Notes under the pieces: generated by a model
Seen by the model: only the letters and a program-made list of their open reading frames with translations
What the model was told of the DNA's origin: nothing
Databases searched by the model: none
Shown: one piece after another, positions 35,722 to 64,000 of the stretch
How positions within the stretch are numbered: the stretch's first letter is position 1
Layout: each line of letters begins with the position of its first letter
Source of the DNA: an uncultured Gammaproteobacteria bacterium
GTDB taxonomy: Bacteria; Patescibacteriota; Patescibacteriia; JACRDY01
NCBI GenBank assembly: GCA_964550465.1
Contig: CAZJZH010000001.1
Location: forward strand, 107 to 64,106
DNA: 64,000 nt
Reading direction: 5' to 3'
Program-made: the position numbers and the translations under genes

Positions 35722-35742
35722 TCCTATTCTAGACATACCCCT

Positions 35743-36993: not shown

Positions 36994-37002
36994 CTATTTC
37001 CC

Positions 37003-46440: not shown

Positions 46441-46527
46441 GGAGAGGTAGCTGCCCGCGACATGACTGGCGGAGCCAGTCTGTGCGGGTCCGACCACTGC
46501 GCCGCAGGCGCAGATGGGCGGAAGTGG
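46441..46527 (+). repeat. ~87-nt repeat, copy B (1 mismatch to copy A)
   Basis: ggagaggtagctgcccgcgac...gggcggaagtgg. Direct repeat of copy A, 323 bp downstream of it. Confidence 0.5.
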
Positions 46528-46573: not shown

Positions 46574-46849
46574 TTGCTATACAGTACATCCACTATGTAC
46601 TATGTATACATCCTAAAAAGTAAGCGGAACGGGAAATTCTACATTGGGCTAACTTGCAATCTACCTCGACGAGTATGGCAACACAATAACGCTCATACCA
46701 AATCAACACTACACGGTATTCCTTGGCAAGTTGTGTATTACGAGGCATATTGCGATAAAAATTTAGCAAGTAAAACTGAATCATTTTACAAAACAAGTCA
46801 AGGTAGAAGGCAAATTAAAAAGAAGTTGCGATTACAAAATAACGATTAA
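46574..46849 (+). CDS. GIY-YIG nuclease superfamily protein (small, YhbQ/UPF0213-like)
   Basis: YVYILKSKRNGKFYIGLTCNLPRRVWQHN is the GIY-YIG motif. The gene is AT-rich relative to the window and its stop codon abuts tRNA-Ser(GCT). Confidence 0.55.
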   Translation: MLYSTSTMYYVYILKSKRNGKFYIGLTCNLPRRVWQHNNAHTKSTLHGIPWQVVYYEAYCDKNLASKTESFYKTSQGRRQIKKKLRLQNND

Positions 46850-46943: not shown

Positions 46944-46969
46944 GTTCATCTCCGCGATGCGGAGTGAAC

Positions 46970-47013
46970 TGGTCCGACCACTGCGCCACAGGCGCAGATG
47001 GGCGGAATGTGTA
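46970..47013 (+). repeat. partial third copy of the ~87-nt repeat (3' half)
   Basis: ctggtccgaccactgcgccacaggcgcagatgggcggaatgtg matches the 3' half of copies A and B with a few mismatches. It lies directly after tRNA-Ser(GCT). Confidence 0.4.
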
Positions 47014-47481: not shown

Positions 47482-47514
47482 ACATGAATCATACGGTAAC
47501 TAAAAACGATTCGC
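47482..47514. terminator. Rho-independent terminator (bidirectional) downstream of sodA
   Basis: aaaaacgattcgccgcggcgaatcgttttttt: a 10-bp perfect palindromic stem. Confidence 0.6.
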
Positions 47515-47541
47515 CGCGGCGAATCGTTTTTTTATATTCTC

Positions 47542-48126
47542 TTACGGTAGCAGCGTACAAACTTGCCACCAGGCGTCGATATAATCCGGTCGCTTGTTCT
47601 GATATTTGAGGTAATAGGCATGCTCCCCAAAAACTAAGCCAATGACTGGCTGGTGTACCAGCAAATACGGTGAGTCATGATTGGGGTTAATGTACACAGT
47701 CAGCTGCCCCTGAGCATCCCGCGCCAACCAAGCCCAACCACTGCCAAAGCGACCAGCAGCTGCAGCCACAAATTGTTCTTTAAAGGTATCTACAGAACCA
47801 AAGGTTTTTTTAATCTCTGCTACCAGCTGTTCATCCACCTGCTTGTCTGGCCCCATAATCTGCCAGAAGAAGCTGTGATTGACCGCTCCCCCGCCGTTAT
47901 TACGCAGCGAGGTTTTGTCCGCCTCATCCATCTGCAAGCTATCAAACTGCTGCAACAACTCCTCGACTGACTGCTCAGCCAGATCGGGATATTTTTCTAG
48001 AGTGGCATTAAGTTTGGTGATATAGCCGTTGTGATGCTTAGTATGGTGGATTTCCATGGTCTGAGCATCGATGTGTGGCTCTAGAGCATCGTAAGCGTAT
48101 GGCAGCTGTGGTAGTTCGTAGGGCAT
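47542..48126 (-). CDS. sodA: superoxide dismutase (Fe/Mn family)
   Basis: YELPQLPYAYDALEPHID...HHTKHH...DVWEHAYY-like C-terminal motif (FGEHAYYLKYQN). Confidence 0.9.
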   Translation of the reverse strand: MPYELPQLPYAYDALEPHIDAQTMEIHHTKHHNGYITKLNATLEKYPDLAEQSVEELLQQFDSLQMDEADKTSLRNNGGGAVNHSFFWQIMGPDKQVDEQLVAEIKKTFGSVDTFKEQFVAAAAGRFGSGWAWLARDAQGQLTVYINPNHDSPYLLVHQPVIGLVFGEHAYYLKYQNKRPDYIDAWWQVCTLLP

Positions 48127-48140
48127 AGTATGGGTCATTA

Positions 48141-48833
48141 TTAATTATCATCATCAGCGGTGGCTAAGGCAAATACCTCAACTCGCCGCACACCAGCCGC
48201 TTTGAGCGTAGCAGCAGCAGCGCTGAGAGTAGCGCCAGTGGTAATCACATCATCAACCAACACAACGGTGGCTGGCAATGATGCCCCTGGCACACGAAAA
48301 GCACTCTCCATGTTACGCTGTCTAGCCTGTTCAGTCAAACCAACCTGCGAGCGGGTCCAGCGCTGGCGGACCAACAATCCAGCCTTAACGATCAGCTGCC
48401 GCCTAGCGGCCAGCCAATCAGCGATGACAGCTGCTTGATTAAAGCCTCGCCAGCGTAACCGCCGTCGATGGAGCGGTAATGGCACCACTACCCCATTAAC
48501 CGGTGGTGGCTGGACACAGCTCAGTATAGCCCTGGCTTCACCAGCAAGGTACTGATACTTGACCGCGTGCCACAGTGTATTAAACAGCGGCTGATGGTAA
48601 TCAAAAGCCACCCAACAGACATCAACCGCCGCTGGTGGCTCAACCTGCCGGGCTGGTACCCTACCAATCTGCTTGAGGCAGTCTTCACAACAATACTGCC
48701 CTGCACGACGACAACCAAAGCAGCGGCGCGGAAAAATAAGGTCAATCAAAACTGGCCAGGGTATGTGCATACCTGACCAGTCTATCACTACTATGTAATC
48801 CAATCCTAAATTACAACCAGTAGGCGCCGTCAA
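48141..48833 (-). CDS. comF: ComF family protein (competence; phosphoribosyltransferase-fold)
   Basis: N-terminal Cys4 zinc finger (CFGC...CCEDC) and a PRT motif (VVLVDDVITTGATL). Confidence 0.75.
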   Translation of the reverse strand: MTAPTGCNLGLDYIVVIDWSGMHIPWPVLIDLIFPRRCFGCRRAGQYCCEDCLKQIGRVPARQVEPPAAVDVCWVAFDYHQPLFNTLWHAVKYQYLAGEARAILSCVQPPPVNGVVVPLPLHRRRLRWRGFNQAAVIADWLAARRQLIVKAGLLVRQRWTRSQVGLTEQARQRNMESAFRVPGASLPATVVLVDDVITTGATLSAAAATLKAAGVRRVEVFALATADDDN

Positions 48834-49410
48834 TCAGCCACTGATTGCCTTGTTGGATAAATTCTACCCGCATTGATTGACGGTAAATAGTTGCCTGACC
48901 ATTGACCACTTCTTCCCGCCGGGTAGACACCACTGCCTCAGCTGTACTACCGCTGACCGTCACACTGTCCACTGCCAGGGCCCGGGTAGTCACTACTTGA
49001 TCATCATCACGCTTAGCTTGCTGACTGATAAAGGTATTTGACCAGTTACGCATGGTGGTGGTCATCAGCGGCTGGATGTCACGAATGTTATTAAAATTAT
49101 TTGATGAGGAATAGGTACCAAACCGCTCGACAAACGTCCGGGCTAGTTTTTCTAGTGACACTTCTGACTGCTGCTCAGTGGTCAGTGTAGTGACTGTTTC
49201 CTTGGTTGGCTGCGTGGCTGCTGGCTCTGCTTCAATCACTAACCGACCACTAGCCGTAGCACCGTTTTCGATCACTACATCATCAGTCGGCGTCGTGTCA
49301 GCCGGTTGATTATCACCCCCACCAAAAACAAAAGCTAGAATAATAGCGATAATAACCAGTGGTACGCCCACTGCTAAACCGATCAGGACTGGTCGTGGAA
49401 TATTATTCAT
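48811..49410 (-). CDS. bitopic membrane protein (possible VirB8-like/NTF2-fold T4SS component; hypothetical)
   Basis: N-terminal TM (LIGLAVGVPLVIIAIILAFVF) followed by an extracytoplasmic domain of about 150 aa. It lies directly downstream of virB4 in the same operon. Confidence 0.4.
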   Translation of the reverse strand: MNNIPRPVLIGLAVGVPLVIIAIILAFVFGGGDNQPADTTPTDDVVIENGATASGRLVIEAEPAATQPTKETVTTLTTEQQSEVSLEKLARTFVERFGTYSSSNNFNNIRDIQPLMTTTMRNWSNTFISQQAKRDDDQVVTTRALAVDSVTVSGSTAEAVVSTRREEVVNGQATIYRQSMRVEFIQQGNQWLIDGAYWL

Positions 49411-49415
49411 AGAAA

Positions 49416-51275
49416 TTATACGTTATCGGTAGTCTGTTGATTGTCTGCAAACTCTTTCTTGGCCGCTTCAATCTCCAGCAGCTGCCGTGGGTCAGTAGTA
49501 ATCAGCTGATCTTCAGCGTATGAAGCCACCACCCGAATAGCGGCGTGCTTATTACCGGCAAAGAAAATGCCTTCACCGACAGCTGATTCTAGCAGCAAAT
49601 ACTTCTCCCCTTCTGTCAGCAGGAATGTCTCCTGGACCGTATCAATGGCAGCTGGTGACTGCTTCATCAGCATCTGTAGAGCTGAGTTGGTCACAATCGC
49701 GCGACCGTATTCTGAATGCAAAAAGTCATTAACGTCCTGGGTAATAGTAGTCACGCCCAGATAGTATTTACGTGCTCGTTTGACCAGGGCAAAGATAAAC
49801 TTGGCTGAGTCCTCATGCTGCATCAACCACCAGCCTTCATCAATCACCAACAGCCGTCGTTTCTTCTCTGAGCGAACCACGTTCCAGATGTAGTTAACCA
49901 AGTTGTAAATAGCCAACGGCCGCAGTTCGTCTTCTAGGTCACGGACCGAAAAGGCTACCAGCTGATTGTCTAGGTCGATATTGGTCGGATGGTTCAACAG
50001 CCCGGCAAAGGTGCCTTCGGTATACTTCTTCAGCCGCAGCGCTACGTCCGCACCACCTTCCATGCCTTCTAAAATATCGACAAAGTCTTGCATGATTGGC
50101 GGCTCGACATCGGCTAAATTGGCCTGTGGGGTGATGTCTTTCTTCGCATACGTTTCCAGCAGCGCTCGGTCGACCAATGAGTCTTCTTCTGAGGTCAGTG
50201 TACCAGTCATCAGTCGAACCAGACCCTTGACGGTAATAACACCGCTGCGGATGATGTCATCAGCACTGGTATCAACATCCGTTGGTCGTGGTAAGTCAAA
50301 TGGGTTGACTTTCGAGTCTGCTGATAGCGAAATATTGATATAGGTACCGCCAACTGCCTCACACAGGTGCTGATATTCCTTTTCTGGGTCAATGACAATC
50401 ACCTCAGTACCCATCATCATGCTGCGCAAAATCTCCAGCTTGACCGTATAACTCTTACCGGCACCAGACGTAGCAAAGACCACCATGTTGGCGTTTTGCA
50501 AGGAGAAGCGATCAAACAAGATCAAGCTGTTGTTGTGCCGGTTAATACCGTACATGATGCCATCATCACTGGACAATTCAAACGAGATGAATGGGAATGA
50601 CGAAGCCGCCGGCGAGGTATTCATGTTAAAGAAAATAGCCAGCTCGTCACGGCCCAACGGCAACGTTGAGGTAAAGCCTTGTGAGGCCTGATACAGCACG
50701 TTACGTGAATAGACTAAGCGTGAGCCGAAAATGTCTTCTAAATCACCGGTCAGATCGTCCAACTCTTCTTTTGAGTCGGCATAAATGGTCACATACAACG
50801 CGTACTGGAAAAAATGCTCGATGCCTTGGGTCAAGTTATCACGCAGCTCTTCGATGTCGCGCAGCGCCGTTTCTTTAATCGGGTCACGTGGCGCGCCCTT
50901 GTCGCGGTCAGCTGATAGTTCGGCCTCCAGGTTACCAGCTCGCTTCTTCAGGTCATTGAGGATCAAAGCTGACTTAACCGGATAGAAAAACATCGACACA
51001 TCAATCGGTGAAGAAAAGTTCAAAATAGGCACAAACCAGCCGATGGAAATATAGCGCGGGTAGGTAATAACAAACGACGTCCGGACATACTGACGACCGA
51101 GGCGCAAATAGGTTGACTGAACATCGTACGAAGCCGGCGCCACCAAATCTAAAATCGAAACAGTACCGGAACGGTAGCGCTTTTCTTCGGCAATCACCTG
51201 CGGCGTGACTTCAGCCTGAGCCGGTTTTTTGGCCTCGGCTGACTGCTGTTTTTTATTGTTCCCAAACAAAGCCAT
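49416..51275 (-). CDS. virB4: type IV secretion / conjugal transfer ATPase VirB4 (TrbE/CagE/TraE) family, C-terminal ATPase portion
   Basis: Walker A FATSGAGKSYT and Walker B LLVIDEGWW. The overall VirB4 ATPase-domain pattern is present. Confidence 0.85.
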   Translation of the reverse strand: MALFGNNKKQQSAEAKKPAQAEVTPQVIAEEKRYRSGTVSILDLVAPASYDVQSTYLRLGRQYVRTSFVITYPRYISIGWFVPILNFSSPIDVSMFFYPVKSALILNDLKKRAGNLEAELSADRDKGAPRDPIKETALRDIEELRDNLTQGIEHFFQYALYVTIYADSKEELDDLTGDLEDIFGSRLVYSRNVLYQASQGFTSTLPLGRDELAIFFNMNTSPAASSFPFISFELSSDDGIMYGINRHNNSLILFDRFSLQNANMVVFATSGAGKSYTVKLEILRSMMMGTEVIVIDPEKEYQHLCEAVGGTYINISLSADSKVNPFDLPRPTDVDTSADDIIRSGVITVKGLVRLMTGTLTSEEDSLVDRALLETYAKKDITPQANLADVEPPIMQDFVDILEGMEGGADVALRLKKYTEGTFAGLLNHPTNIDLDNQLVAFSVRDLEDELRPLAIYNLVNYIWNVVRSEKKRRLLVIDEGWWLMQHEDSAKFIFALVKRARKYYLGVTTITQDVNDFLHSEYGRAIVTNSALQMLMKQSPAAIDTVQETFLLTEGEKYLLLESAVGEGIFFAGNKHAAIRVVASYAEDQLITTDPRQLLEIEAAKKEFADNQQTTDNV

Positions 51276-51276
51276 A

Positions 51277-51954
51277 TTAGTTGGTTTCTGTTACATCTAC
51301 CTTGGTCATGTCACGAATCGGCTGGGTAGCAGCAGTATCTGGGTTATATGAACTATAGTACAGCTCAATCAAACTCTGCGTGTCCAGTCGCTGCGAAGTC
51401 AGCCCCACGCCCTCTAAACCAGTAATGACGTGCTCAACGCGCTGCTGCAGCTCCTTGTTGCGTGACTTAAACTTCTTGTCATTTAACTTGACCACTGAAG
51501 CTGGTGAAAATAGCTCCCCAAAGCGGGAGAAAAAGCCTTTCTGCTTATCTGACAGTGGATCATATGGCACGATGACATAAAACCGCTTACTCATAATATC
51601 TCCCAACTCAACCAGTTCCCCGATGTATTTACGGTAATCACCAATCTGCATCTTCAGCAGCTCATTGGTCTGCTCACGCTCCATCTTGCGCAGCTTCTCC
51701 AGGTATGGGGTGATGTCCATCTGCCGAGATTGCACGACGATTTGAATCGGGTAGGTAAAGGAGTTGAGGAACTGCATGTAGGCGCTGATAATGGCCTGCT
51801 GTTCGTCCTCTGATTTGAGATCAAAATTAATACTGGAGACCATCAAAATAGCCCGCAGCGTACCGTCTTTCATAATGACGGTGTCATTGCGAATCTCGTT
51901 AAAGGGCAGCACCTGCCGCGTGTTTGGTTTTTTACTGGTCTGCTTGGCTTGCAT
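51277..51954 (-). CDS. VirB4 N-terminal-domain-like protein (apparent split VirB4)
   Basis: 225 aa directly upstream of the VirB4 ATPase ORF, with a 1-nt gap. The pattern LPF..I.DG..........L.V.SINF.L.SE.EQ matches the VirB4 N-terminal domain. The two ORFs sum to about 844 aa, typical of full-length VirB4. Confidence 0.45.
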   Translation of the reverse strand: MQAKQTSKKPNTRQVLPFNEIRNDTVIMKDGTLRAILMVSSINFDLKSEDEQQAIISAYMQFLNSFTYPIQIVVQSRQMDITPYLEKLRKMEREQTNELLKMQIGDYRKYIGELVELGDIMSKRFYVIVPYDPLSDKQKGFFSRFGELFSPASVVKLNDKKFKSRNKELQQRVEHVITGLEGVGLTSQRLDTQSLIELYYSSYNPDTAATQPIRDMTKVDVTETN

Positions 51955-51957
51955 AGC

Positions 51958-52419
51958 TTACTGCTGTTGATTGGCTACCTCATCATTAGTCGGCCGGTAG
52001 GCGCCGCCGGTATTGACGATCAGTGATAACTCCTCTAAATGACTTTTGTTAATCATCGGCTTAACGGGAATTTTTTCAGTCTCTTCTTCAGTGTCATCCG
52101 TAGCCAGTAAATCTTTAATCTGCTGAGTGGTCATCTCTTTACGCCAAACCATCAGACGTGGTGCCTTGAATGTTTCGATAATATTGAGGAAGAAATAGTG
52201 AAACGGCCGGCCATTGACCTTTAAAAAGGCAATGGTACCAAAGACGCCGAAAGTAACGACGGCCGAAATAATAAAGCCCCAGAAATCAAGTAAGCGATAC
52301 TCGATAAACATCACCAACATGCCCACCACCATGATAATAAATTGGCGGACAGTAATAGGGCCAATAATTTTTGGCTCAACGTCGATAAATTGTGGTACCA
52401 AAAACTTATTGGCAGGCAT
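51958..52419 (-). CDS. PrgI/VirB3-like small membrane protein
   Basis: FLVPQFIDVEPKIIGPITVRQFIIMVVGMLVMFI...: two TM helices. The size and motif are typical of PrgI-family VirB3 homologs of Gram-positive T4SS, and the gene lies upstream of VirB4. Confidence 0.6.
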   Translation of the reverse strand: MPANKFLVPQFIDVEPKIIGPITVRQFIIMVVGMLVMFIEYRLLDFWGFIISAVVTFGVFGTIAFLKVNGRPFHYFFLNIIETFKAPRLMVWRKEMTTQQIKDLLATDDTEEETEKIPVKPMINKSHLEELSLIVNTGGAYRPTNDEVANQQQ

Positions 52420-52426
52420 AGGACTG

Positions 52427-53707
52427 TTAGTATTCTATCATGCTGGACAGCTTTCCCAAAGCACGGAATTCTTCGGCCGATACAAACGGTCGCTGCTCTT
52501 TTTTGCGCTGGGCGATAGTCTGATCGACCGGCTGACCGGCCGCCATACTATCAGCCGCGATAGCCAAATAGAGTCGGTGTACCTGACTAGTGCGCCAGGC
52601 TTCCACTGCCGCTACCCGCTGACCAAAACTCTCTCGTTCCAGCAAATCAATTTTTTCTTTGATTTTGACAATAGCTTTGGCTGGATCACTGTTGAGGGCG
52701 CGGAACTCTTCTACAGGGCCAACTAACTGGGTCGGTGCGTGGACATCGGTAATTTTCTTACCGGCCGCGGCTGGAGCCTGGGCTCGAGTCACCTGTTGCG
52801 GCTTAGCCGGTGGCTGCTTACGCGGTACCGGCTGAGCGGTTGGTGATGGTACGGCTGACTCCTTCTTGCTAGCCGCTACTGAGGTCGACGGCAGTGGTCG
52901 ATCAATAAACGGCTTAGCTGGTGACTGCTGTTTAGCTCGCCGTGGTACTGGTTTGGTGGGTGGAGTTGATGGCTGCGGTGCTGCTGGTTTAGCCGGCGCA
53001 GGAGTTGGTGACGGCGACGCGGCTGCTGACTTTTTCGGTATCAGTGATTCAATAGCTGACCGACCCTGCGGCGGCGCTGGTTTGGGCTTTGGCGGTGGTG
53101 ATGACGGTGGCGCTGTATGTGTCTGCTGCTTTGGTTGAGCTGCAGCGACAGTTTTTTTTGCTGGTGGCTGGTCCGGCGGTGACTGAGTAGATTTTTTAAC
53201 CACTGGCGCTGGTGGTGCTAACTCGTGGCGCAATTCCTGGAGAGAAATTTTATGCAAAGCTGGTGATGGTGACGCTACTGGTTTTACCTCTGGTGATGGC
53301 TGACCCTTTTTCTTATGAGCAGCAATAATAGCCAACACCATGTCAGCCGCAGCCGCGTCTAAGCCCAGTCCCCCACTAGCCACGGCTTTGGTCAGCGTCT
53401 CACGGGTCTGTTGGTCTGTTCGCACACCTTTGAGGTTAATCATGACGGCATTACGCAGCCGCCGGTCAATCAGTTCCTGGTCACCACCAGCGCTGATGCC
53501 GGCTCGTAGTTTAGCTACGATAGCATCAACCTGCTGGTCAGGGTGTGGTGCGGTTGATGACGGCGCAGCTGCCTGACTAGTGCTCGCCGCCTGCTGACCA
53601 ATAAGCGAAAACTGTCCGCTGGCATCGCGGACGGGGATTTCATCAAAGCTGTCATGTGGTGCGCCTCCTGCCATAGATACTGTTTTATCGCCGCCAGGCG
53701 AAGTCAT
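52427..53707 (-). CDS. Pro/Ala-rich low-complexity protein (hypothetical T4SS-associated)
   Basis: 426 aa with a central stretch of about 200 aa of P/A/K/Q-rich repeats (PPPKPKPAPPQ...). It sits in the operon between the PrgI-like gene and the upstream hypothetical gene. Confidence 0.45.
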   Translation of the reverse strand: MTSPGGDKTVSMAGGAPHDSFDEIPVRDASGQFSLIGQQAASTSQAAAPSSTAPHPDQQVDAIVAKLRAGISAGGDQELIDRRLRNAVMINLKGVRTDQQTRETLTKAVASGGLGLDAAAADMVLAIIAAHKKKGQPSPEVKPVASPSPALHKISLQELRHELAPPAPVVKKSTQSPPDQPPAKKTVAAAQPKQQTHTAPPSSPPPKPKPAPPQGRSAIESLIPKKSAAASPSPTPAPAKPAAPQPSTPPTKPVPRRAKQQSPAKPFIDRPLPSTSVAASKKESAVPSPTAQPVPRKQPPAKPQQVTRAQAPAAAGKKITDVHAPTQLVGPVEEFRALNSDPAKAIVKIKEKIDLLERESFGQRVAAVEAWRTSQVHRLYLAIAADSMAAGQPVDQTIAQRKKEQRPFVSAEEFRALGKLSSMIEY

Positions 53708-55115
53708 TTTTAGCTACGTCAAAATACGCCAACTGACTGTAGCGGTCATTACCGGATCGCTTAAGGGTGTTACCCAACCACAAACCAATCCGCGCCGCTT
53801 CACCCTCCGGTAAGCCTAAACGGTCCTGCAAAATAGTGCTCAAGAAGAGCTGTAAAAATCGCGGCGCTGTCGGCATCAGGGCAAAGTCCTTAGCACCTTG
53901 AGCGTCTTGGCGACGCTGCAGCTGCTCTATCACCACCGCGCCAAACTGTGGATCTTCTTTGAGGATATCATCTAGCCGCTCTACCTCTGCCAGTAGTAAC
54001 AGGGCGGCCACTACTTCTTCTTTATCCGGCGTCTGCACCTCAACCAGACGATGGAGCTGCTGGTACAGCTGTTCAATATTGCCGCCAACCGTGCTGCGCA
54101 TCTGCTCCATCCGCTCGATAATCCGCTGGCGCTCGCCTTCATCCCCACGGTAGCGCTGGCGAATAGCTTCGGTCGAAACAGTTGGTTGTGGCGCTACTGT
54201 CGGTCGAGTGGTGACTGGCTGTGGTTGAGTGGATGAAGCTGGTGCTGATTGCGTGGTGGTTTTGGTCGGTGCGACTGTGTTAGCTGGTTCTGCAGCCAGC
54301 ACTTGCTCAACCGCTGTAGCTACCTCCTCATCGGTCAACGGCGTAAACGTGCCTTGACGGTATTCCACCACCGTACCATCTGCCGCCTGAGCATACTCTC
54401 GATCCTCATTGCCAAGCATGTCAGAAGATTTGTACTTCAGTTCTTCAAACAAATCAAACAGGGCTGTGACCTGTTGTCGTTGCTCTGGAGAGAGTTTGCT
54501 GAGGTTGGGGTCTTGAATAAGAAAATCTTGATACGCTAGTTGGTCAACTGGCTCAATGCCCAGTGTAGCAACATAGAGCTTAACCCAATTAGCAATCGTG
54601 CTCGTCGTTTGCCGATCATTAAACGACAGCTGCTCTGCGGTCAATTTTTCTGTATTACTCTGAATAGCTTGGCGGATACGCTCCCGGTACTCGTCACGTT
54701 CATCAACATCATCCTCATACTCCAGTCGATCACGCAGTTTCTCGACAATATCCAGCTCAGCATGCAGGGCCAAACCAGCGGCTAACGACTGGCGAAACTG
54801 ATCAAGCACCTCAGGCCACGGTAATAACGGTAAGCTAACCCAACGCAGTTGAGTGACCAACTGTTGGTACTGAACATATAACTCCGGCGCAGCTGAAGAT
54901 ACTTTTTCTAGTCGTGCTAATTCAACAATGCTGTCAGCAAAATCTTTTGCTTCGACCATGTCATGCTGTAGCACTACTTGTTGGACATCATCCTGCAGCC
55001 GCTGTAACGACTGAGATGTTAACAAACTAAAGCGCGCCTGCTGCTGGCCTTTTGAGCGCGCAGGTCGTGCTGACTGCGGACCCTTTTGTTGAGTTTTTGT
55101 TTTATTTGTCGTCAT
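53685..55115 (-). CDS. hypothetical cytoplasmic protein (T4SS operon member)
   Basis: 476 aa with no TM. Acidic coiled-coil regions. Overlaps both neighbours. Confidence 0.45.
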   Translation of the reverse strand: MTTNKTKTQQKGPQSARPARSKGQQQARFSLLTSQSLQRLQDDVQQVVLQHDMVEAKDFADSIVELARLEKVSSAAPELYVQYQQLVTQLRWVSLPLLPWPEVLDQFRQSLAAGLALHAELDIVEKLRDRLEYEDDVDERDEYRERIRQAIQSNTEKLTAEQLSFNDRQTTSTIANWVKLYVATLGIEPVDQLAYQDFLIQDPNLSKLSPEQRQQVTALFDLFEELKYKSSDMLGNEDREYAQAADGTVVEYRQGTFTPLTDEEVATAVEQVLAAEPANTVAPTKTTTQSAPASSTQPQPVTTRPTVAPQPTVSTEAIRQRYRGDEGERQRIIERMEQMRSTVGGNIEQLYQQLHRLVEVQTPDKEEVVAALLLLAEVERLDDILKEDPQFGAVVIEQLQRRQDAQGAKDFALMPTAPRFLQLFLSTILQDRLGLPEGEAARIGLWLGNTLKRSGNDRYSQLAYFDVAKNDFAWRR

Positions 55116-55123
55116 AGCAAATA

Positions 55124-57997
55124 TTATGCTTGTTCCTCGTCTCGAATCTTGCCAATACTATCCTTCAGGTCGTCCTTAGCATTCTTAACACTCTTACCAA
55201 TTTTACCCTCGATTGCTTTGAGCAGATCATTAATTTCTGTTTCTGACATACCGCCCCGCTGCAAACTTTTTACCATTACATCTTTATCCGACATCAAATC
55301 TTGCAACAGCTGTGTTGGAACGCGGTTAAGCTTAATCTGTTTTTCTAGGTCTCCACCGCGCTTCTCCAGCACCACCTGACCAGCAAGATTCAATTTTACA
55401 CTACCATCAGTCTGCAAGGCCATCATTTCGCCAGTTTTCATCTCGCGCCACATCTTTTCTGTATCTTTCTTCATTACTCGACTCGCCGCTACCATAGCAT
55501 TAGTCTTGATGTCAGCGGCATAGTACTCTCCTCGATTAGAATCATACAAATACCGAGCAACAAAGTTGGTGTCACCAGCTTTCATGGTATTGGCTGATGC
55601 CTCTTTAAGTAATTTCATGGAATCCTGTGCGCCCATACCAAGACGCCCTTCTAATACATCTCGACGAAAATCTTCTATGCCAGTAGCTGAGCCCTCATAG
55701 CCATTCAAATTCAGCATCCATTGCAGATTGCCATCCTTACCAGCACGTTTAATAATTGCCATCGCTTGACCTGTCAAGCCTTGTGCTACCGCCTTTTTAA
55801 ACTCAGCTGCTAATTCTGTTTCATCAAGTTCAGCGAAATCAAAGCCTTTTTGTTCCTCCGCCTCTAGCTCAGCTTGTTGTTGAGTGGCCCGTGTTAAATC
55901 TGGCGTCAATTGCGCTCGCTGCTTTTCAGTCTTAGCGGTGGTATTATTTGCTCGCTCTTCCAGAGTTGATGCCCAACGACGATGACCTTCAGCATCCGCT
56001 GGACTCTCCTCTAAGCGAGCTCTGGCAGCCAACCGCTGTTTTTCGAGTTCATTATATTCCTCAATTGCACCCTTATCGCGCTGTAACTCCTGATAGCGTG
56101 TATCATTTTTATACCGTGATGAATCCCTATCATACGACGCTTCTATATCAGACATTTCTCGCTCAATCCTGCCTAGGTCAGCATTCCGCTTGACTCGATC
56201 ACGCCAAGCGAGCGTACCATCACCAGCTTTGCGAACATCGCTAAACCGACCATCTTGCATTTGACTTTCACTGTAATCCAACTGCTTCTGTATAACTTTT
56301 TCGTCATCACCCATTTTAGCTGCGTGCATAGCAAGAATTTTTGAGGGCGTGTATCCTTCTACATCAGCATACGCACTATCGTATGCCGTCGCATCTGCTA
56401 TCAATTTTTGACGCACTGTCTCAGCATCATCACCTGTTTTACCTACTACCTGGTTAATAACAGATGAGTCCACTACCCCAGTTCTTAGCGCAATTTGCTG
56501 TCGATCAGTCTCCGACAAAGCTTTGCCAGCAGTAGCTGCAACTGCTAGATCGCGCTGTAACCCAGCTTCATATCGTTCCCCTTTAGCGGTGTCAAGCCCT
56601 TTGTTAATATCACCAATATGAGTCATGCGGTTAACCTTGCCTATGCCAGCTGCAAGACCTCCTTTCCAAAAATCCTCCGGATTACCCATCATGGAAATAA
56701 ACTGGCCTCGGCGTGAACGCCCCCCATACTTATTTGATAATTGCTTAGTTTTAGCTCCTGCTTCCAACCAATCTGTTTTTTTTCTTTGCTCCATGCCAGC
56801 TCTAATAGCCTGAAATTGACGCACAGGACTCAGGTCTATACCGGTGCGCTTCGCCTGCTTGCGATTGGCATACGACGCCACTGCCAGTGGTCGTTTCGCT
56901 GTCCACTTAGCCGCTGATGTCCCCCAACTCTTGGCCTTACCAATAGCAGCTGTACCTAACCCAGCTCCGGCCACCTTTAACTGGGCAGTCATGGTTAGAC
57001 CACCAACTAATAAGCCGACAGAGATAATAAAGTTAGTCAAAAATCCCGGCTCACCCGCCTTACCAATACCGGCACTAACTGTACCGGACTCGCTACCAAA
57101 ATTACCACTACTATCACCCGTCAAGCCTGGCTGGTTGAAGCCAGCCGCGCCACTGAATGAGGCCATTGATAACCAGATAAAGAAGGCTAGTGTTGGTCCC
57201 GCTATAACATATTTAGTGAACTCGCCAAACATCTGATTGGCCTTGCCCGCCCCTGAGGGGATCGCCATCAGTAAGAAGACTAGTGGTGACAGTACCACGA
57301 ATAGCCATAACATGACGATGCGAAAAGCTAGCTGCACTACCATGATAAGCATCACTACCAGCAATACTAAGAGATAGAGAATGGCGTAGAGGTAAATGGC
57401 AATCAAATCACCACGGACATCAGTGATCTGCTGTTTATCAACCGCGCCTGGAGAAAACCGCAACACATCCGCCAAGCCCACCCCAGCCATCAGGTTACCC
57501 GGGCCGATATCTTTAAAACCAGCCACAAAAGTCAGCATTACTACTTGACCAGCGTCAATAATCAGTCCATAAATAGTGCGCGAAAAGTTGACCAATAACG
57601 CCAAAAGCAAGACTTTTGGCAGTAATTTTTTGTAGTTATAGTTATCCATCCCCGGCAGAATGGTGGCGATGGCAATAATCAGTAAAATGATGACAAAGGC
57701 CATGTTGGCAACATCTCGCACCAGCACCCAGCCGTAAATCACTGTTGGTGCGTTGATGAACTCATTGTAGCTGGCCACCCAAGCGAGAATGCTAATAACA
57801 GTGACTACCATCTTACCAATAGCGCTAACCAAAAATGCTAGCAAGGCGATAAATAAGTCAGCCACTGTCTCTGTAACTACACCAGCATGCGCCAGTTGCG
57901 GCACTAACACGCCAACCAACACCAGCACCACCGCCAAACCAGCCATCGAGGCGATGGCCTGGCGTGAGCGGCAGAATGTGGTTAAGCGGTTTTTCAT
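55124..57997 (-). CDS. VirB6/TrbL-like polytopic membrane protein with ~550-aa hydrophilic C-terminal extension (TcpH-like architecture)
   Basis: Signal peptide, then about 6 TM helices, a Gly-rich segment, and a long charged coiled-coil tail. This architecture matches VirB6 homologs of monoderm conjugation systems. Confidence 0.55.
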   Translation of the reverse strand: MKNRLTTFCRSRQAIASMAGLAVVLVLVGVLVPQLAHAGVVTETVADLFIALLAFLVSAIGKMVVTVISILAWVASYNEFINAPTVIYGWVLVRDVANMAFVIILLIIAIATILPGMDNYNYKKLLPKVLLLALLVNFSRTIYGLIIDAGQVVMLTFVAGFKDIGPGNLMAGVGLADVLRFSPGAVDKQQITDVRGDLIAIYLYAILYLLVLLVVMLIMVVQLAFRIVMLWLFVVLSPLVFLLMAIPSGAGKANQMFGEFTKYVIAGPTLAFFIWLSMASFSGAAGFNQPGLTGDSSGNFGSESGTVSAGIGKAGEPGFLTNFIISVGLLVGGLTMTAQLKVAGAGLGTAAIGKAKSWGTSAAKWTAKRPLAVASYANRKQAKRTGIDLSPVRQFQAIRAGMEQRKKTDWLEAGAKTKQLSNKYGGRSRRGQFISMMGNPEDFWKGGLAAGIGKVNRMTHIGDINKGLDTAKGERYEAGLQRDLAVAATAGKALSETDRQQIALRTGVVDSSVINQVVGKTGDDAETVRQKLIADATAYDSAYADVEGYTPSKILAMHAAKMGDDEKVIQKQLDYSESQMQDGRFSDVRKAGDGTLAWRDRVKRNADLGRIEREMSDIEASYDRDSSRYKNDTRYQELQRDKGAIEEYNELEKQRLAARARLEESPADAEGHRRWASTLEERANNTTAKTEKQRAQLTPDLTRATQQQAELEAEEQKGFDFAELDETELAAEFKKAVAQGLTGQAMAIIKRAGKDGNLQWMLNLNGYEGSATGIEDFRRDVLEGRLGMGAQDSMKLLKEASANTMKAGDTNFVARYLYDSNRGEYYAADIKTNAMVAASRVMKKDTEKMWREMKTGEMMALQTDGSVKLNLAGQVVLEKRGGDLEKQIKLNRVPTQLLQDLMSDKDVMVKSLQRGGMSETEINDLLKAIEGKIGKSVKNAKDDLKDSIGKIRDEEQA

Positions 57998-58003: not shown

Positions 58004-61000
58004 TTATAGCTCAGCGTCTGGGGGTAGGATGACAATGTAGCCGTCATACGTCGCCCAGTTTCCTTGATTAGCATCACACGCGGTTTGATCTTGATCAAAC
58101 AAACACGCGTCACCCCCACAGCCACTATCACCACAAACTTGCCAGTTATCAATCACTTGAACTCGTGGTTGTAAAGTATTGCATGGGCCATCATAGTCGC
58201 CCCAATCCGGATCATCATCTGCAATAAATGGACTACAATCAGCTCGATAGACTGAATTACCAGTAAAGTTCTTCGTATTCCCCGCATTACTGGATGCTGT
58301 AGTATAGGCATGTGAGAAGAGTACCTCAAAGTATGCTTCTCGACAGGCCCCATTAGGATTTTCCCCATAATTACTGCTGCCGTCCGTACACTCCTGACGA
58401 ATATTTGCATACGCATCAGACGGGTCATCGCCAAAGGTTCTATCGAGCAGCGCGGTAGGAATATCTGACGTCTGATCATAGCCATCACCCGTATAGTCAA
58501 CACGGAATCGACGGAGCGGCAATTGCTGACCATTTTCATTATAGGCAAAGAAGTGAATATTTCCCCAGAAAAGATCTGTTTTAATGATTGGCCAACCATC
58601 GCCCCGGCCAGCTCGGAAGTCGATCGAAATATGCTCAGAGTCCCCCTGCTCTAACCCCTCGGCGCCACGAGCAATAACCTCAGTAATAACCGGCGCTTGG
58701 CCCAGTACATCACGGTCATCGTACGGCCCTTGGAGTGCGCTTGTTTTCTGCTCCCAGTCATCACCAACTTCATCTTGGCGCCACACACTAAATGCTTTGG
58801 CAAACAACCGACCGATACGGTTAAACCCTTGAGAGAAGTACGATTCATTCGTTCCAAGAGCAGATGTATTGTACCCAACACATCTACCACCACCACTATA
58901 ACAAGCCTCTAGGGCACTATCTGTGTCACAGTTTTCACCCTCTGCCTTGCCACCAAAACAGAAGCTACCTTGGCAATAAGCCGTAGCCAGCCCTTCACAG
59001 GCATATGGCCCGCCAGCCGTGAATACATTCTGCGCTTGATCATGATAGTCAATCACCTCATAAAACTGGTTGTCTGGAACTCCGCTACCACCAGGACGAT
59101 AAGTCCGGTCTGAGTCAGCCTTGAAAGCCCCATAAAAATCATAATAATCCCGTAAGGCGTGTGGCACAGCGCCACCAATAGTATAATCAGCACTAAGCAC
59201 GTCCGTAAAGAAGTGGTTTGTATATATAGCCGCGTGGTCATCCCAGTCATCAATATCGGTAGCTGCTTCTTTAGCGAATTGAGCTAGCGTTGAGCACTGT
59301 TCCTTGTAAACAATAAACGGCCGCAGGGTAATCTTACCATTTCTGTTTGCTTTCGTATCAAGACACCCGTCAGTTCCTCGGCTACCAGCATCATTTGTAC
59401 TATGAATAACGCCAAATCGGAATCTGTCGAGCTGTCCATCGTCATCCCAATACACATTAATCTTAAAGCCATTTTCTTTATTGCCCCGCACATCATCACT
59501 AAAACTATTACCAAACGGGTTAGCAAAAGACTGGTCACCCTCATTCCATAAACGCTGATTGTATGTCCAGCGGGTGTTACTGCTATTGTATGCGTAGGCT
59601 TGATCTAACCAACCGTTGCCAGGGTTATTCCCTGACACCTCTGTTGGGTACCAAATATCCCAACCGCCGCTGGTGGGTTCGTGAAGATCATGCTTATTCG
59701 TATACAGCAACTCTCTATCCGCCGGATCAGCAATAAACACCGCTGCGAACCCGTTCTCAACTCCCTCAACTCCGTCTAACTCAACATTGAGATAGTTCTT
59801 GGGCAACGGGTTCTGTGGCAGTGCCGGTCGTGCGCCCTCACCCTTATCTGGAAATGCACTACTAATACACTCCACTTCTTGGAAGTAGATAGCCAGCACC
59901 TCGTCTCGGTGAATATTGCCGATACGAGCATTGTTAGATGGCTCAACCGATAGTCGACAGTAAGTGAAGTCCTCCTCCTTTTTAACTGGCGTCAGACGAA
60001 TATCACCCACCTTAGCCCACTCCGCGATAATTGGCTGAGTATCATAGGTTGGTTGACCAAATAGGTCGTATCCTGTCACTCGCTTTGTTTTACCTATCTG
60101 CGTAGTATTATCGATTGGACCATATACCCAGCCGTAGTTTTCATCATCATCGCCACTGGAAGGAGGTTGGTTGCTATTACAGAAATCACAATTACCACCG
60201 CTCTCTCCACAGTCATTTTTATCTTCAACACGGACAACACTCCATGGCCCCGGCGCAGCATTGTCATCTGGACCACGAGGCTCTAGACCACTGTCTCGTT
60301 CCCAAAACCAATCAGCATCTTCACGCGTTACCCCCAGTCGATTAGCATTGGCCATAGCAATCGGACTAGCATCAGATCGCTCATAAAAGTATGGGCCATT
60401 GCCTTTTTGCGCCAAACAGTAGTTAAGCTCTTTTCCTTCTATTAGTGCTGTATAGTCAACTGTTGGATCACTCTGGAAGGCATCATTTTCACCACGTAGC
60501 TGATCAAGCGGCATCCAAGTCAAGCATGGGTGCTTGTCAGCCTTTCCTTCAATAGTTCGACTCTCTAAGTATTCTATGCAGTAGCCTCGCCACCCTAGAC
60601 GGACTTGTTTTTCTGTTGGCTTGACACACACATCATGTTCACTTGGTGTCCGAGTCCTTTGCTCAGTATCACGATTTATGTACAAGTCTTCAGCGCCCTC
60701 TCCATCTTCAATATAAATCGGTTCATTAGGCTGTAACATACAGTCGCCATCTCTGTTACAAGGGTCTCCAATTCGAGCAATAGCGCCGGTGATAGAATTA
60801 CCTGCTTCACCGTCTGCGTCTGCGCAAAAGTAATCTCCTTCCCAAGCGGAATCAACATCATTTAGATCATGTGGGAAATACCCCCGACTACCACCAGTGC
60901 TCCATTTTTCATAGCTACACTCACACACATCACCATCCAGCCCGCAGGTCGAAGCATCAGTGTAATACGGATTTTGCCCGTCATAAACTACGCGATCAAA

Positions 61001-64000
61001 TGGGGCGTCGTTATCGGCGTACCCACGACACTGCTTACCGACAGGATCATCCCATTGCCCCACGCCCACACCAAGCACTTCCCGAGCGCCACTACCAGCA
61101 GGAACAAAGGTTAATCCATAATCAGCGCCATCAAAATCACAGGTTGGATCACTGCCACCACAACTATCATCAATACACGGCGTTCCATCACTACACTGCC
61201 CAATGAGCTGTTCTCGCAATGACCAAGCTGGGTAGAGACCTGGAATCGAATACCCGGAGTATTCATAGCCATCCCATCCCAATGAACGGTTCAAATACTT
61301 ATTGATATCTAGGACGCTCCGAGTATCGCGCGCGGCATCACTGGTAACACCCTCACCCCACACTACCGGATCACCAAAGCCTGCTTCATAGCCTGGTGCT
61401 GTCCCATAGAGCTCTTCAATGGCTGGAGGGATTGGTGTTTCATCGCTACACAGAAGCGCGCTCGTGCTACTGGCATCGGGCACAGCGGTACATGAATGAG
61501 TACCAAGACACACTCGACGTAATTCTCCACTGTTTGGATCGGAAATAGCCACGGAGTTATTACACCCTATCCACTCGGCACAAACACGGTCACGACGAAC
61601 AGCAATCATATCATTACTGTCGTTTTGACGATCCGCGCCATCTTCATCTCTACAGTACTGAGAAACATCACCCGTAACCGAACAATTCAGTGGTGGTACT
61701 TGGATATCGTTGTTTTCTTCACTACGCTGATAGGTAGCAACGGCACTGAAGGTCAGGTCAGCTTGCCACTGTTCTTCACCCCCGCCAATGGTAATATCAG
61801 CGTTTTGATAATCAAACTTACCGCGATTTTCGAACAAGACACAACCTTCTTTGAGTGAAGCGCCGTTGCGACAACTATCACGATCAATCAAATCATTGTC
61901 GATGAAGTAGTAGTGATTATTATCATTAAAGGTATCACCATTCGGATCAATAAACTCGGTACAACCGCTTTCATCATCTGGGCACAGCGTGGCTTGTGAG
62001 CGTACATTGCGTGGATTACCACAGCCATTATCGTCAACGCCAGGCTTGAGTGTACAGAGGTCATTATCTTCACTGCCAGCTACCACCCAACAGCTTTGAC
62101 TACCGCCAATATCACGGAAGACACATTCACCTGGACTGTTGTAGGTTGGCCGGGTTGGGTCACCAAAGTAGGCTGGATTTAAGCCATCGGCATCACTAGC
62201 AAAGTTTTCACAACTATGGTGCTGTGGCGCGCAGAGAATACTGTCGTATTGGTTTGGATTGTCTTTGAGATAGACTGGCTCAGCGGCAAAAACGAAGTCG
62301 TAGTCCACATCAAAACTGACATCACCAACACTTGGATCGTTGAAATATGGCGTATCCCCCTTGTACACAGTAGCCTGCCAGTCGATTGGGCTCACCGCCT
62401 GACAACCAGCATCAGCTGCTTGACAGGTATACTCTGGACGGTTAACCAAATAGACAAACTGGTCAGCTGGTACCTGTACTCCGCCACTCATGTTGTACTC
62501 CGCGTTATACGAAATATCGCCAGCGTAATTATAGTCATCAAGGTAATATTCCAAACCAGCAGTGTCATCGGTGGCAATAAATGTACACTCTGTTCCTCCT
62601 TGAGGTACCGTGCAAGCGTCAAAGGTCCCCCCACCAGACTGTGGCGATAACTGTGCCAGACACGTACACCCACCTGCCTCTGTACAAATAGCTGACAAAG
62701 CACAGCGGGTATTAAACGACTGGTACCATGGTGAATTCGAATTGTGCGTATCGATCACTGCCTCACAGCCAATGGCTGATTCTTCACACAAGCGGGTGAA
62801 CGACCGCAGATTGACGATCTGATTATTGGCATCTTGATAGGCCTCACAGCCCAGCATAAATTGTGGGGCCGGCGCACCGCTGTAGTTTTGGTCACACTGG
62901 GCTGGTGTATTCCACGAATCAGCAATCAAGAACTGAGTGTCTGTCACCTGTTCTAGTCGAACATTATCGATATAAATCTGTGATTGGCCGTCAAAGACCA
63001 GCACATCACCGTTCACATCCCAATCAACAAAGACTGGGCCAAAGCGGTAGTACTGCCAGTCAGTACCCATTGATTGATTATTGGCAAAGATACCGTCTTG
63101 ACCGCTGCCATTGAGCTCGCCACTATCACGGAAGAAAATACTGACCGTATTACCGATCTGCGCGGACTTACCCCAGAAAGTGATGGTGTATGCTTGGCCG
63201 CTGACCGGCACTTCACCGTCACCGAGCGAACGAGCTACTTGGTGACCGGCATTATTACTGCGGTATGAGTGCGCGCCAACTGAGTAGCTTTCCCCCACTA
63301 CTACGCCAGCGTACTGATTGCCACCCGGTAGGGCGCTCATGTCCCATGCGGTTGGTGTAGCCTCAAAGCCATCTTCAAAAGCTACCGCAGACGCCCCGGC
63401 ATAGTTACCCTGGTATTCGCGACAGCCCGGCTCGCTACAAGCTATACTCTGTTCCGGTGTACCGAGGTAGCGGCACTGACCAGCAAAGTCGTCCCACTGA
63501 CTAGTGCCTCCCGGCAAACTGCCACACTGTGACTCTGTTAGGTTGTAACACAAACCGTTAAATGATTGACCGCCTAGGTTGACACACAGCTGGCTAGGGA
63601 TAGCCACCGCTTGGCCAGCGCCATCAATGACGCGACACTGACTGAACAAACCGCCAGAATCTAGACAGCTGTCGCCCACACCGTCACTATTGACATCAAC
63701 TGAAGCATCATCGGTCAAGCCAACACCACCGGTCAAACGGTACGGATGACACTGACTGGTACACAGCACGGTGTCTGTCATCAAGCGGTAGCTGATTTGC
63801 CCATCAGCTGAGTAGAACTGGCGGCAATCCGGTGTGTATTCTGGATGATACCAAGTATCCCCTGGATTCTGCCCATAAAACGGCTCACAGCTGTAATTAT
63901 CACCGCCAAAGCCGGTTAGTGGCTGACCAAAGGTAGATGAATCCGCGTCTTGGTCAATGTAGACAAATTCCTCAATAGCAAATGGTTTTTGACTGTCAGT
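58004..64000 (-). CDS. giant Cys-rich extracellular protein (>=1998 aa, N-terminus beyond window edge)
   Basis: Continuous minus-strand ORF. The listed TTG start at 63784 is internal; I traced the frame open upstream to at least 63934 (...GTFPQLGFGGDNYSCEPFYGQNPGDTWYHPEYTPDCRQFYSADGQISYRLMTDTV...). More than 100 Cys. Rich in G, D, N, Y and W. The C-terminus ends ...YIVILPPDAEL. Confidence 0.7.
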   Translation of the reverse strand, partial: TDSQKPFAIEEFVYIDQDADSSTFGQPLTGFGGDNYSCEPFYGQNPGDTWYHPEYTPDCRQFYSADGQISYRLMTDTVLCTSQCHPYRLTGGVGLTDDASVDVNSDGVGDSCLDSGGLFSQCRVIDGAGQAVAIPSQLCVNLGGQSFNGLCYNLTESQCGSLPGGTSQWDDFAGQCRYLGTPEQSIACSEPGCREYQGNYAGASAVAFEDGFEATPTAWDMSALPGGNQYAGVVVGESYSVGAHSYRSNNAGHQVARSLGDGEVPVSGQAYTITFWGKSAQIGNTVSIFFRDSGELNGSGQDGIFANNQSMGTDWQYYRFGPVFVDWDVNGDVLVFDGQSQIYIDNVRLEQVTDTQFLIADSWNTPAQCDQNYSGAPAPQFMLGCEAYQDANNQIVNLRSFTRLCEESAIGCEAVIDTHNSNSPWYQSFNTRCALSAICTEAGGCTCLAQLSPQSGGGTFDACTVPQGGTECTFIATDDTAGLEYYLDDYNYAGDISYNAEYNMSGGVQVPADQFVYLVNRPEYTCQAADAGCQAVSPIDWQATVYKGDTPYFNDPSVGDVSFDVDYDFVFAAEPVYLKDNPNQYDSILCAPQHHSCENFASDADGLNPAYFGDPTRPTYNSPGECVFRDIGGSQSCWVVAGSEDNDLCTLKPGVDDNGCGNPRNVRSQATLCPDDESGCTEFIDPNGDTFNDNNHYYFIDNDLIDRDSCRNGASLKEGCVLFENRGKFDYQNADITIGGGEEQWQADLTFSAVATYQRSEENNDIQVPPLNCSVTGDVSQYCRDEDGADRQNDSNDMIAVRRDRVCAEWIGCNNSVAISDPNSGELRRVCLGTHSCTAVPDASSTSALLCSDETPIPPAIEELYGTAPGYEAGFGDPVVWGEGVTSDAARDTRSVLDINKYLNRSLGWDGYEYSGYSIPGLYPAWSLREQLIGQCSDGTPCIDDSCGGSDPTCDFDGADYGLTFVPAGSGAREVLGVGVGQWDDPVGKQCRGYADNDAPFDRVVYDGQNPYYTDASTCGLDGDVCECSYEKWSTGGSRGYFPHDLNDVDSAWEGDYFCADADGEAGNSITGAIARIGDPCNRDGDCMLQPNEPIYIEDGEGAEDLYINRDTEQRTRTPSEHDVCVKPTEKQVRLGWRGYCIEYLESRTIEGKADKHPCLTWMPLDQLRGENDAFQSDPTVDYTALIEGKELNYCLAQKGNGPYFYERSDASPIAMANANRLGVTREDADWFWERDSGLEPRGPDDNAAPGPWSVVRVEDKNDCGESGGNCDFCNSNQPPSSGDDDENYGWVYGPIDNTTQIGKTKRVTGYDLFGQPTYDTQPIIAEWAKVGDIRLTPVKKEEDFTYCRLSVEPSNNARIGNIHRDEVLAIYFQEVECISSAFPDKGEGARPALPQNPLPKNYLNVELDGVEGVENGFAAVFIADPADRELLYTNKHDLHEPTSGGWDIWYPTEVSGNNPGNGWLDQAYAYNSSNTRWTYNQRLWNEGDQSFANPFGNSFSDDVRGNKENGFKINVYWDDDGQLDRFRFGVIHSTNDAGSRGTDGCLDTKANRNGKITLRPFIVYKEQCSTLAQFAKEAATDIDDWDDHAAIYTNHFFTDVLSADYTIGGAVPHALRDYYDFYGAFKADSDRTYRPGGSGVPDNQFYEVIDYHDQAQNVFTAGGPYACEGLATAYCQGSFCFGGKAEGENCDTDSALEACYSGGGRCVGYNTSALGTNESYFSQGFNRIGRLFAKAFSVWRQDEVGDDWEQKTSALQGPYDDRDVLGQAPVITEVIARGAEGLEQGDSEHISIDFRAGRGDGWPIIKTDLFWGNIHFFAYNENGQQLPLRRFRVDYTGDGYDQTSDIPTALLDRTFGDDPSDAYANIRQECTDGSSNYGENPNGACREAYFEVLFSHAYTTASSNAGNTKNFTGNSVYRADCSPFIADDDPDWGDYDGPCNTLQPRVQVIDNWQVCGDSGCGGDACLFDQDQTACDANQGNWATYDGYIVILPPDAEL

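Follow-up and report, generated by a model that had tools for sequence, protein, structure and literature searches.

A conserved cysteine-rich giant protein adjoining a type IV secretion operon in Patescibacteria is a candidate host-envelope-binding partner of the secretion system

The end of the window, by which we mean the whole 64,000-nucleotide stretch of contig CAZJZH010000001.1 that was analysed, is occupied on the minus strand by part of a very large gene (58004–64000) that lies directly upstream of the genes of a type IV secretion system (T4SS). Its product, referred to here as the giant, has in our judgement an even chance of being an exported, disulfide-stabilised partner of the T4SS that binds the host envelope. 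This reading draws on the signal-like N-termini and invariant cysteines of a large family of relatives, on a predicted lectin-type fold, on a hypervariable region that is exchanged as a block and on a conserved position next to the secretion genes.

A large part of bacterial diversity belongs to the Patescibacteria, which apparently live attached to other microbes. Giant surface proteins have often been noted in these bacteria, and the T4SS cluster itself is already known. The T4SS is essential in a Saccharibacterium, the only species tested, and its role has been described as 'completely unknown' (PMC10633639, PMC11665869). A survey of Patescibacteria T4SS reported 'no adhesins such as PrgB' and left the unannotated neighbouring genes uncoloured (PMC12102498). 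A conserved protein of ~300 kDa, predicted to be exported and adjoining the T4SS, is a concrete candidate for the contact between machine and host. It would be a new T4SS-associated surface factor, unlike the known ones in sequence and architecture; full-text literature searches found no description of the family, its T4SS linkage or its cassette behaviour.

The giant gene

The minus-strand frame is open from position 64000 to the stop codon at 58004–58006, giving 1998 codons that reach the window edge; the list of open reading frames (ORFs) has it begin at an internal TTG at 63784. A single ORF running off the edge had been proposed by the first-pass annotation and is borne out by the open frame, by the alignment to the closest relative, P0001, and by 1016 related cluster representatives. 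This is a real, conserved and very large gene. The visible part aligns to residues ~1104–3205 of P0001 (3213 residues), and as long relatives begin with a signal-like segment, ~1000–1150 residues (~3.3 kb) should lie beyond the window edge. What is visible would be the C-terminal two-thirds or so of a protein of roughly 3,000 residues, about 300 kDa. Residues are numbered below from the first visible codon. The GC content of the gene resembles that of its neighbours.

Cysteine accounts for 77 residues (3.85%) of the visible part, as compared to 0.87% in the other 46 ORFs of the window. The earlier count of more than 100 cysteines is too high for this part of the protein; full-length relatives mostly have 90–137 (family median 4.0%). 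The reported richness in G, D, N, Y and W is confirmed when the giant is compared with the 46 other ORFs (C 4.45-fold, Y 1.9-fold, N 1.8-fold, W 1.8-fold, D 1.7-fold, G 1.5-fold), and K (0.41-fold), L (0.54-fold) and M (0.21-fold) are depleted. Hydrophobic stretches are almost absent, as had been noted; the visible part has no segment resembling a transmembrane (TM) helix, and the maximum Kyte–Doolittle mean over 19 residues is 1.22. Self-BLASTP shows no long internal repeats, and no tandem or dispersed DNA repeats lie within the gene. The first impression of a protein free of repeats holds to this extent and fails for a short cysteine-loop motif, C-x(3-10)-[GS]-C-x2-[FYWVIL], which occurs 10 times as compared to 1.06 ± 1.15 times in shuffled sequences (1000 shuffles, maximum 6).

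No Pfam or NCBIfam family matches the giant at E ≤ 1, and there is no sequence match in the PDB. Profiles in Pfam and NCBIfam of the known T4SS subunits (VirB1–B11, Prg/Trs) give no match. Pfam finds no SLH or other S-layer domain in the giant or in 17 relatives, and no catalytic family was matched (Pfam, NCBIfam, PDB sequence) in the giant, its four closest relatives or 14 diverse members of the family. Of the observations raised at the outset as speaking against a secreted protein, the 1998 visible codons show neither an in-frame stop nor a match to an intracellular enzyme family. Two further identities were ruled out on motifs: the giant is not a multihaem cytochrome, since the haem-binding motif CxxCH is absent, and it is not a sortase substrate, since LPxTG is absent anywhere in the visible sequence, as is a C-terminal hydrophobic segment.

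The family and its predicted export

The initial homologue search returned 29 relatives, mostly of 2460–3360 residues; those with organism names come from metagenome-assembled genomes of Patescibacteria. The best match is P0001 (E = 4.3e-264), followed by P0002–P0004 (E ~ 1e-200, with a single BLAST segment covering 52–60%). Relatives from all searches carry the labels P0001–P0037 and P0042–P0186. Residues 37–1200 were used for an exhaustive HMMER search of 1.84 billion cluster representatives, of which 1016 matched at E ≤ 1e-3 and 545 at E ≤ 1e-30; almost all of the matches are 2300–3900 residues long. Homology to the family spans the whole visible length of the giant. The family is large (about 1000 clusters at 50% identity) and almost without recognisable domains, and its members are nearly all nameless or, where named, 'hypothetical protein'.

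A scan of GTDB species representatives located the family in Falkow-, Buchanan-, Magasanik-, Kerfeld- and Uhrbacteria as well as in unnamed Patescibacteria, the closest relative having 37% identity. We take the five named groups to be ABY1 lineages in GTDB; the uncultivated bacterium that carries the giant is one of the ultra-small Patescibacteria, probably of class ABY1.

A signal-like hydrophobic segment is found at the N-terminus of 145 of 159 long relatives, with an AxA-like site next to it in those inspected. Only 10 of the 159 have a further TM-like segment beyond the N-terminus. The combination suggests a Sec-exported protein that is soluble or peripherally attached outside the cell, in line with the extracellular location first proposed; Sec-type export of this copy would follow from the N-termini of its relatives.

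The cysteines are strongly conserved. Among the five closest sequences, 60 of the 77 are invariant, and 15 of the 23 columns that are invariant across 38 sequences are cysteine. This pattern supports the structural role given to the cysteines by the first reading, and the invariant, closely spaced pairs point to disulfide bonding.

Domain organisation

The visible part can be divided into a cysteine-rich core (residues 1–1200), a hypervariable region (1201–1750) and a C-terminal domain (1751–1998). The core (60401–64000, minus strand) was delimited by alignment and AlphaFold2 (AF2) modelling; it is predicted to be mostly beta and has many short C-x5-10-C loops. Of its 56 cysteines, 51 are invariant among the five closest sequences. 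Over 100 of 181 homologues can be aligned to most 50-residue blocks of residues 51–850 and to residues 1151–1200; alignability is lower at residues 101–150 and 451–500.

The AF2 model of residues 37–1200 (25 homologues) is beta-rich, with a mean predicted local distance difference test (pLDDT) score of 56. It is confident for one domain, residues ~204–356 (62933–63391, minus strand; pLDDT 70–91), whose predicted fold is a beta-jelly-roll of the type seen in carbohydrate-binding module (CBM) families 4, 16 and 22. This gives the visible core one lectin-type fold. Relatives have a second, more N-terminal copy of the jelly roll that scores above the Pfam threshold for CBM_4_9 (40.5 bits in P0043, threshold 25.9). 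CBM_4_9 is also the sole Pfam family among the 14 diverse members, present in nine of them. The fold suggests that the jelly rolls bind glycans. A single acidic motif resembling thrombospondin type 3 (TSP3) repeats, DVNSDGVGD (residues 102–110; 63671–63697, minus strand), was found by pattern match and is a possible Ca2+ site.

The C-terminal domain (58007–58750, minus strand), defined by alignment and motifs, is moderately conserved and can be aligned in 16–26 of 181 homologues. Its conserved motif columns are FYAYN..QxPLR..DW/Y.GDG and P.VQVIDNW.C, and part of it reaches a pLDDT of 60–76. It has no Pfam match at E ≤ 10, and a homologue search with the C-terminal 250 residues alone gave no match. 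The motifs (DWGDG ... HxY ... VxVxDNWG) have the look of a PKD domain; as Pfam lends no support at E ≤ 10, we keep this as a lead only. The model of residues 1201–1998 has a pLDDT of 38 and is unusable, and Foldseek found no match with it.

Hypervariable region and block exchange

The hypervariable region (residues 1201–1750; 58751–60400, minus strand) was recognised by its poor alignability. It begins immediately past the conserved motif GWRGYC...CLTWMP...YC, can be aligned in only 1–12 of 181 homologues and has 14–23% identity to the four closest relatives. Pfam gives no match to the hypervariable regions of the giant, P0024 or P0025, and we accordingly make no claim from the lectin-like look of one cassette.

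The relatives P0024 and P0025 show how the region varies. They are 99–100% identical over residues 1–2100 and 2801–2954, whereas over residues 2401–2800, a block of ~400 residues, identity falls to 12–40% with many gaps. The jelly-roll-like stretch just N-terminal of this block is 54–76% identical. The replaced block lies directly behind the same GWxGYC...YYC motif and so corresponds to residues 1201–1750 of the giant. Two more pairs of relatives have an identity dip at the same place. The comparison of P0024 and P0025 indicates that the hypervariable region is swapped as a whole between strains that hardly differ elsewhere; such a swap is demonstrated, at the level of sequence comparison, in the relatives. 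Targeting of the giant by a diversity-generating retroelement was considered and ruled out: no direct DNA repeat that could serve as template involves the gene, there is no reverse transcriptase among the Pfam matches of the window, and the variation is block replacement rather than point diversification.

The T4SS operon and its conservation

The genes downstream of the giant are on the same strand, separated by gaps of 1–8 nt or overlapping by 23 nt, through to a superoxide dismutase (SOD) gene. The first of them, starting 6 nt past the stop of the giant, encodes a polytopic membrane protein of 957 residues (55124–57997), with a signal-like N-terminus, about eight TM segments within residues 1–340, and a hydrophilic tail of ~600 residues. 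It has no Pfam match even at E ≤ 10. We presume it to be an extended VirB6-like subunit, going by its topology, its place in the operon and an orthologue that is marked 'faint' for TrbL_3. It is followed by two conserved members of the operon recognised by comparison of loci, a 476-residue protein without cysteine, TM segment or Pfam match (53685–55115) and a 426-residue protein without Pfam match (52427–53707). Next come a PrgI/VirB3-like protein with two TM segments (51958–52419; PF12666, 30.6 bits, cutoff 27), a 225-residue TrsD/TraC-like protein that resembles the VirB4 N-terminus (51277–51954; NCBIfam TrsD and VirB4 N-terminal matches) and a 619-residue VirB4 ATPase of the Gram-positive (CD1110) type (49416–51275; NF045971, 341.8 bits, cutoff 325; PF19044). 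The operon described first as VirB6/VirB4 is in this way supported for VirB4, and PrgI and TrsD are added to it; the VirB6 label stays presumptive.

The tail of the operon (47542–49410) encodes a 199-residue single-TM protein, a ComF-like phosphoribosyltransferase and the Fe/Mn SOD, in the same order as in the locus of P0001. Just beyond the SOD stop is a 13-bp hairpin with flanking A- and T-runs (47502–47531), likely the terminator of the operon. All of these genes are on the minus strand. The neighbours of the giant mostly have no or one cysteine; the ComF-like protein has eight. The small TrsD-like gene could be taken for a piece of a split or frameshifted VirB4. This was ruled out, as the 225-residue gene is a known TrsD homologue and TrsD is a separate gene in all the loci of relatives that were read. 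A TrsD homologue is the commonest T4SS component in Patescibacteria (Quinonero-Coronel et al., PMC12102498). T4SS loci of ABY1 typically contain comF and recG (PMC12102498), and the window likewise holds a ComF-like gene and RecG. Its other genes are those of an ordinary chromosome (L1, ThyA, DHFR, dUTPase, GatB, ThrRS, DnaE, PheST, ClpB-like, three tRNAs), which rules out an origin of the giant in a mobile element.

In relatives the order is ksgA, a small gene, the giant, a VirB6-like protein of ~900–1000 residues, one to three unknowns, PrgI, TrsD and VirB4. The VirB6-like gene lies downstream of the giant, mostly within 500 nt, in 31 of the 36 related loci that have at least 2.5 kb of downstream sequence, and it is in these that the order giant, VirB6-like, PrgI, TrsD, VirB4 recurs. 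The linked loci come from Falkow-, Buchanan-, Magasanik- and Uhrbacteria and from unnamed Patescibacteria. The proposed coupling of the giant to T4SS genes is supported by this conserved order.

The first-pass annotation also placed the giant at the head of the operon. Its start is not visible in the window, and the gene calls of seven related loci, when read, showed in every one a small gene of 243–339 residues directly upstream on the same strand (L001 9025–9984, L003 8941–9951, L005 9260–9997, L006 9122–10000, L007 9191–9961, L046 9263–9994, L047 9250–9993), so another gene probably precedes the giant in the unit. In six of the seven, ksgA is upstream of the small gene. The five products that were translated (L001–L007) have a single TM segment, TSP3 Ca-binding repeats (DTDSDG...), two cysteines and repeated 'SD.EL..L' helices. 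This small TSP3 protein, whose gene would lie outside the window, is a likely partner of the giant.

Compared with the nearest relative, L001, identity is 84% for VirB4, 68% for TrsD, 63% for SOD and 60% for PrgI. The giant and the VirB6-like protein have 37–38%, and membrane or extracellular proteins overall 37–46%. On these identities, the surface-exposed parts of the operon evolve fastest.

Locus L007 has an unusual arrangement. No genes are called downstream of the giant between 18414 and 21203, and this gap is followed by a LAGLIDADG endonuclease gene (21203–21838). The gap may hold an intron-containing rRNA gene in place of the T4SS genes.

Discussion

Our data suggest the following mechanism. 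The giant would carry an N-terminal signal peptide of the kind found in its relatives and leave the cell by the Sec pathway. Outside the cell it would adopt a rigid, mostly beta fold held by many short-range disulfide loops, to which calcium could contribute, given the acidic composition rich in D, N and G and the one TSP3-like motif. The lectin-like jelly rolls of the core (CBM4/9/16/22 type), one inside the window and another further N-terminal in relatives, would bind glycans of the host envelope. The ~550-residue hypervariable region near the C-terminus, exchanged as a block in relatives, would select the host surface to be bound. Through its conserved parts the protein would dock to the T4SS, most plausibly to the large extracytoplasmic tail of the VirB6-like protein, a proposal founded on gene adjacency. 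In this way the giant could hold a chromosomal T4SS of the Gram-positive type against the host envelope and fill the functional place of the PrgB-type adhesins with no kinship to them. The host-contact factor suggested at first is plausible as far as a binding role goes, in view of the jelly roll and the swapped hypervariable region; adhesion itself is a step that we infer.

We tentatively extend this proposal to the family as a whole, which could be the missing extracellular, host-facing component of the ABY1 T4SS: a disulfide-locked scaffold docked on the VirB6-like protein and carrying an exchangeable cassette of ~400–550 residues that determines the host. If this is true, the host range of these uncultivated bacteria could be read from one gene.

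Several observations weigh against a host-binding partner of the T4SS. Adhesion, glycan binding, disulfide bonding and T4SS contact are each deduced from sequence and models. The N-terminus of this copy lies outside the window, and the giant has no anchoring motif, neither LPxTG nor a C-terminal TM segment. No thiol-oxidising system is seen among the annotated genes of the window. CBM_4_9 (PF02018) does not match the visible part at E ≤ 1, and with mean pLDDT of 56 and 38 for the two models, most of the giant is without an assigned fold. Five of the 36 loci lack a VirB6-like gene over a distance of 10 kb, and several more have other genes in between. The pairing of the giant with the small upstream gene may be more constant than its link to the T4SS.

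The last two points bear on the possibility that the giant is a structural, perhaps S-layer-like, protein of the bacterium's own envelope that shares with the T4SS genes a conserved, highly expressed neighbourhood (ksgA, RF-1, Sua5) and would not work with the secretion machine. An acidic, beta-rich, exported, very large and cysteine-stabilised protein is what some envelope proteins look like. The T4SS genes are absent nearby in five loci, whereas the small upstream gene is kept in seven of seven and ksgA in six of seven, and virB4 is often found close to ksgA and to housekeeping genes located near the origin (PMC12102498). We nevertheless consider this unlikely, while giving it some real weight. 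The giant and the VirB6-like gene are immediate neighbours, mostly within 500 nt, in 31 of 36 loci although protein identity is no more than 23–38%, an S-layer domain (SLH or other) was not found, and the wholesale internal swap between near-identical strains fits a recognition module better than a lattice protein.

Alternatively, the giant could be a structural extracellular piece of the T4SS, such as a stalk, cap or fibre across the wall and S-layer that in function would resemble the outer-membrane core or pilus tip of diderm systems, and not primarily an adhesin. Conservation is strong over the N-terminal and central two-thirds, where cysteines are invariant, which is unusual for a fast-evolving adhesin; the gene tightly adjoins the VirB6-like gene; and Gram-positive-type systems are without a known extracellular conduit (PMC12857230). 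Such a role appears quite unlikely to us because the giant resembles no VirB or Prg subunit, five loci are unlinked from the T4SS, and genes with VirB2-like pilin domains, which might form a conduit, are found elsewhere in the window. Sequence data do not separate a conduit piece from a host-binding partner.

CBM4/9/16/22 modules are normally appended to glycoside hydrolases, and the giant might accordingly be a carbohydrate-active or wall-remodelling enzyme whose catalytic domain is too divergent to be recognised and which opens the wall of the host, or its own, for the T4SS in the role of VirB1. Homologues of VirB1 are mostly not associated with virB4, and other glycosidases may substitute (PMC12102498); ~85% of the giant, without an assigned fold, leaves space for such a domain. 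An enzyme is nonetheless improbable, since the searches of the giant and its relatives described above match no catalytic family, and elsewhere the window encodes an M23 peptidase as a separate protein, joined to a T4SS-pilin-like domain. A pseudogene or chance open frame, for which nothing speaks beyond a gene start outside the window, is a negligible prospect and is already refuted for the visible part by 1998 stop-free codons, hundreds of full-length homologues with conserved residues and a GC content like that of the neighbours.

The closest functional parallel to a host-binding partner of the T4SS is provided by the PrgB-type adhesins of MPF_FATA systems (PMC12857230). Like these, the giant is large, predicted to be exported to the surface and encoded inside a cluster of Gram-positive type; the CD1110-type VirB4, PrgI and TrsD in a gap-free operon are those of an MPF_FATA-type cluster. 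A glycopolymer-binding module and a role in holding cells together, both predicted for the giant, would be further shared features. Unlike PrgB, the giant is without LPxTG, without a GbpC or antigen I/II domain (Pfam/NCBIfam at E ≤ 1, PDB) and without sequence similarity, and it is 2–3 times larger, cysteine-rich and chromosomal. In contrast to the PrgB systems, the T4SS of Patescibacteria mostly lack a relaxase and are thought not to be conjugative (PMC12102498). The modules of the PF02018 clan (CBM4, CBM9, CBM16, CBM22) make up ~5–10% of the giant and have no recognisable catalytic partner domain in it.

CagY of Helicobacter pylori is a T4SS surface protein of ~1900 residues with regularly spaced cysteines and a variable region remodelled by recombination. 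It is a VirB10 homologue with membrane anchors and varies through tandem DNA repeats, whereas the giant has no VirB10 domain, TM segment or DNA repeats and varies by non-repetitive block replacement. Phage receptor-binding proteins and polymorphic surface proteins, which have exchangeable specificity modules, offer an analogy: as in these, a conserved scaffold is combined with a block that is swapped between near-identical strains. The giant differs in that it has no phage context and that its exchanged block sits inside the protein, with a conserved C-terminal domain beside it. Very large proteins have also been described in P. danicum (FhaB-domain proteins of more than 5000 residues without full-length homologues; PMC11809585) and in Absconditicoccaceae (more than 1500 residues; PMC13059738). 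These are likewise exported proteins of epibiotic ultra-small bacteria and proposed adhesins. They carry adhesin domains (FhaB, FN3, integrin-like), of which the present family has none known, whereas full-length relatives of this family are conserved and number about 1000, and its place in the genome is fixed.

Other features of the window

A run of genes on the plus strand (35020–41979) includes three long proteins of 390, 437 and 448 residues with weak T4SS_pilin/VirB2-like stretches (E 4e-3 to 4e-5), one of which is a fusion with an M23 peptidase domain. The three pilin-like stretches are paralogous repeats of 258 nt (37204–37461, 38571–38828 and 41011–41268) that are 70–72% identical. The run resembles the 'VirB2 arrays' reported for Patescibacteria, with proteins far longer than pilins, and is located on the opposite strand 6–20 kb from the VirB4 operon.

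Two copies of an 87-nt sequence (46118–46204 and 46441–46527) are 99% identical, and a third, partial copy is near 46963–47010. The first 13 nt of the two full copies are shared with the adjacent tRNA-Ser genes, and the copies fit no Rfam family. They flank the two tRNA-Ser genes and an ORF for a small GIY-YIG nuclease (46595–46849; Pfam E = 2.6e-13), and the segment 46118–47010 may be a small mobile or tRNA-derived element.

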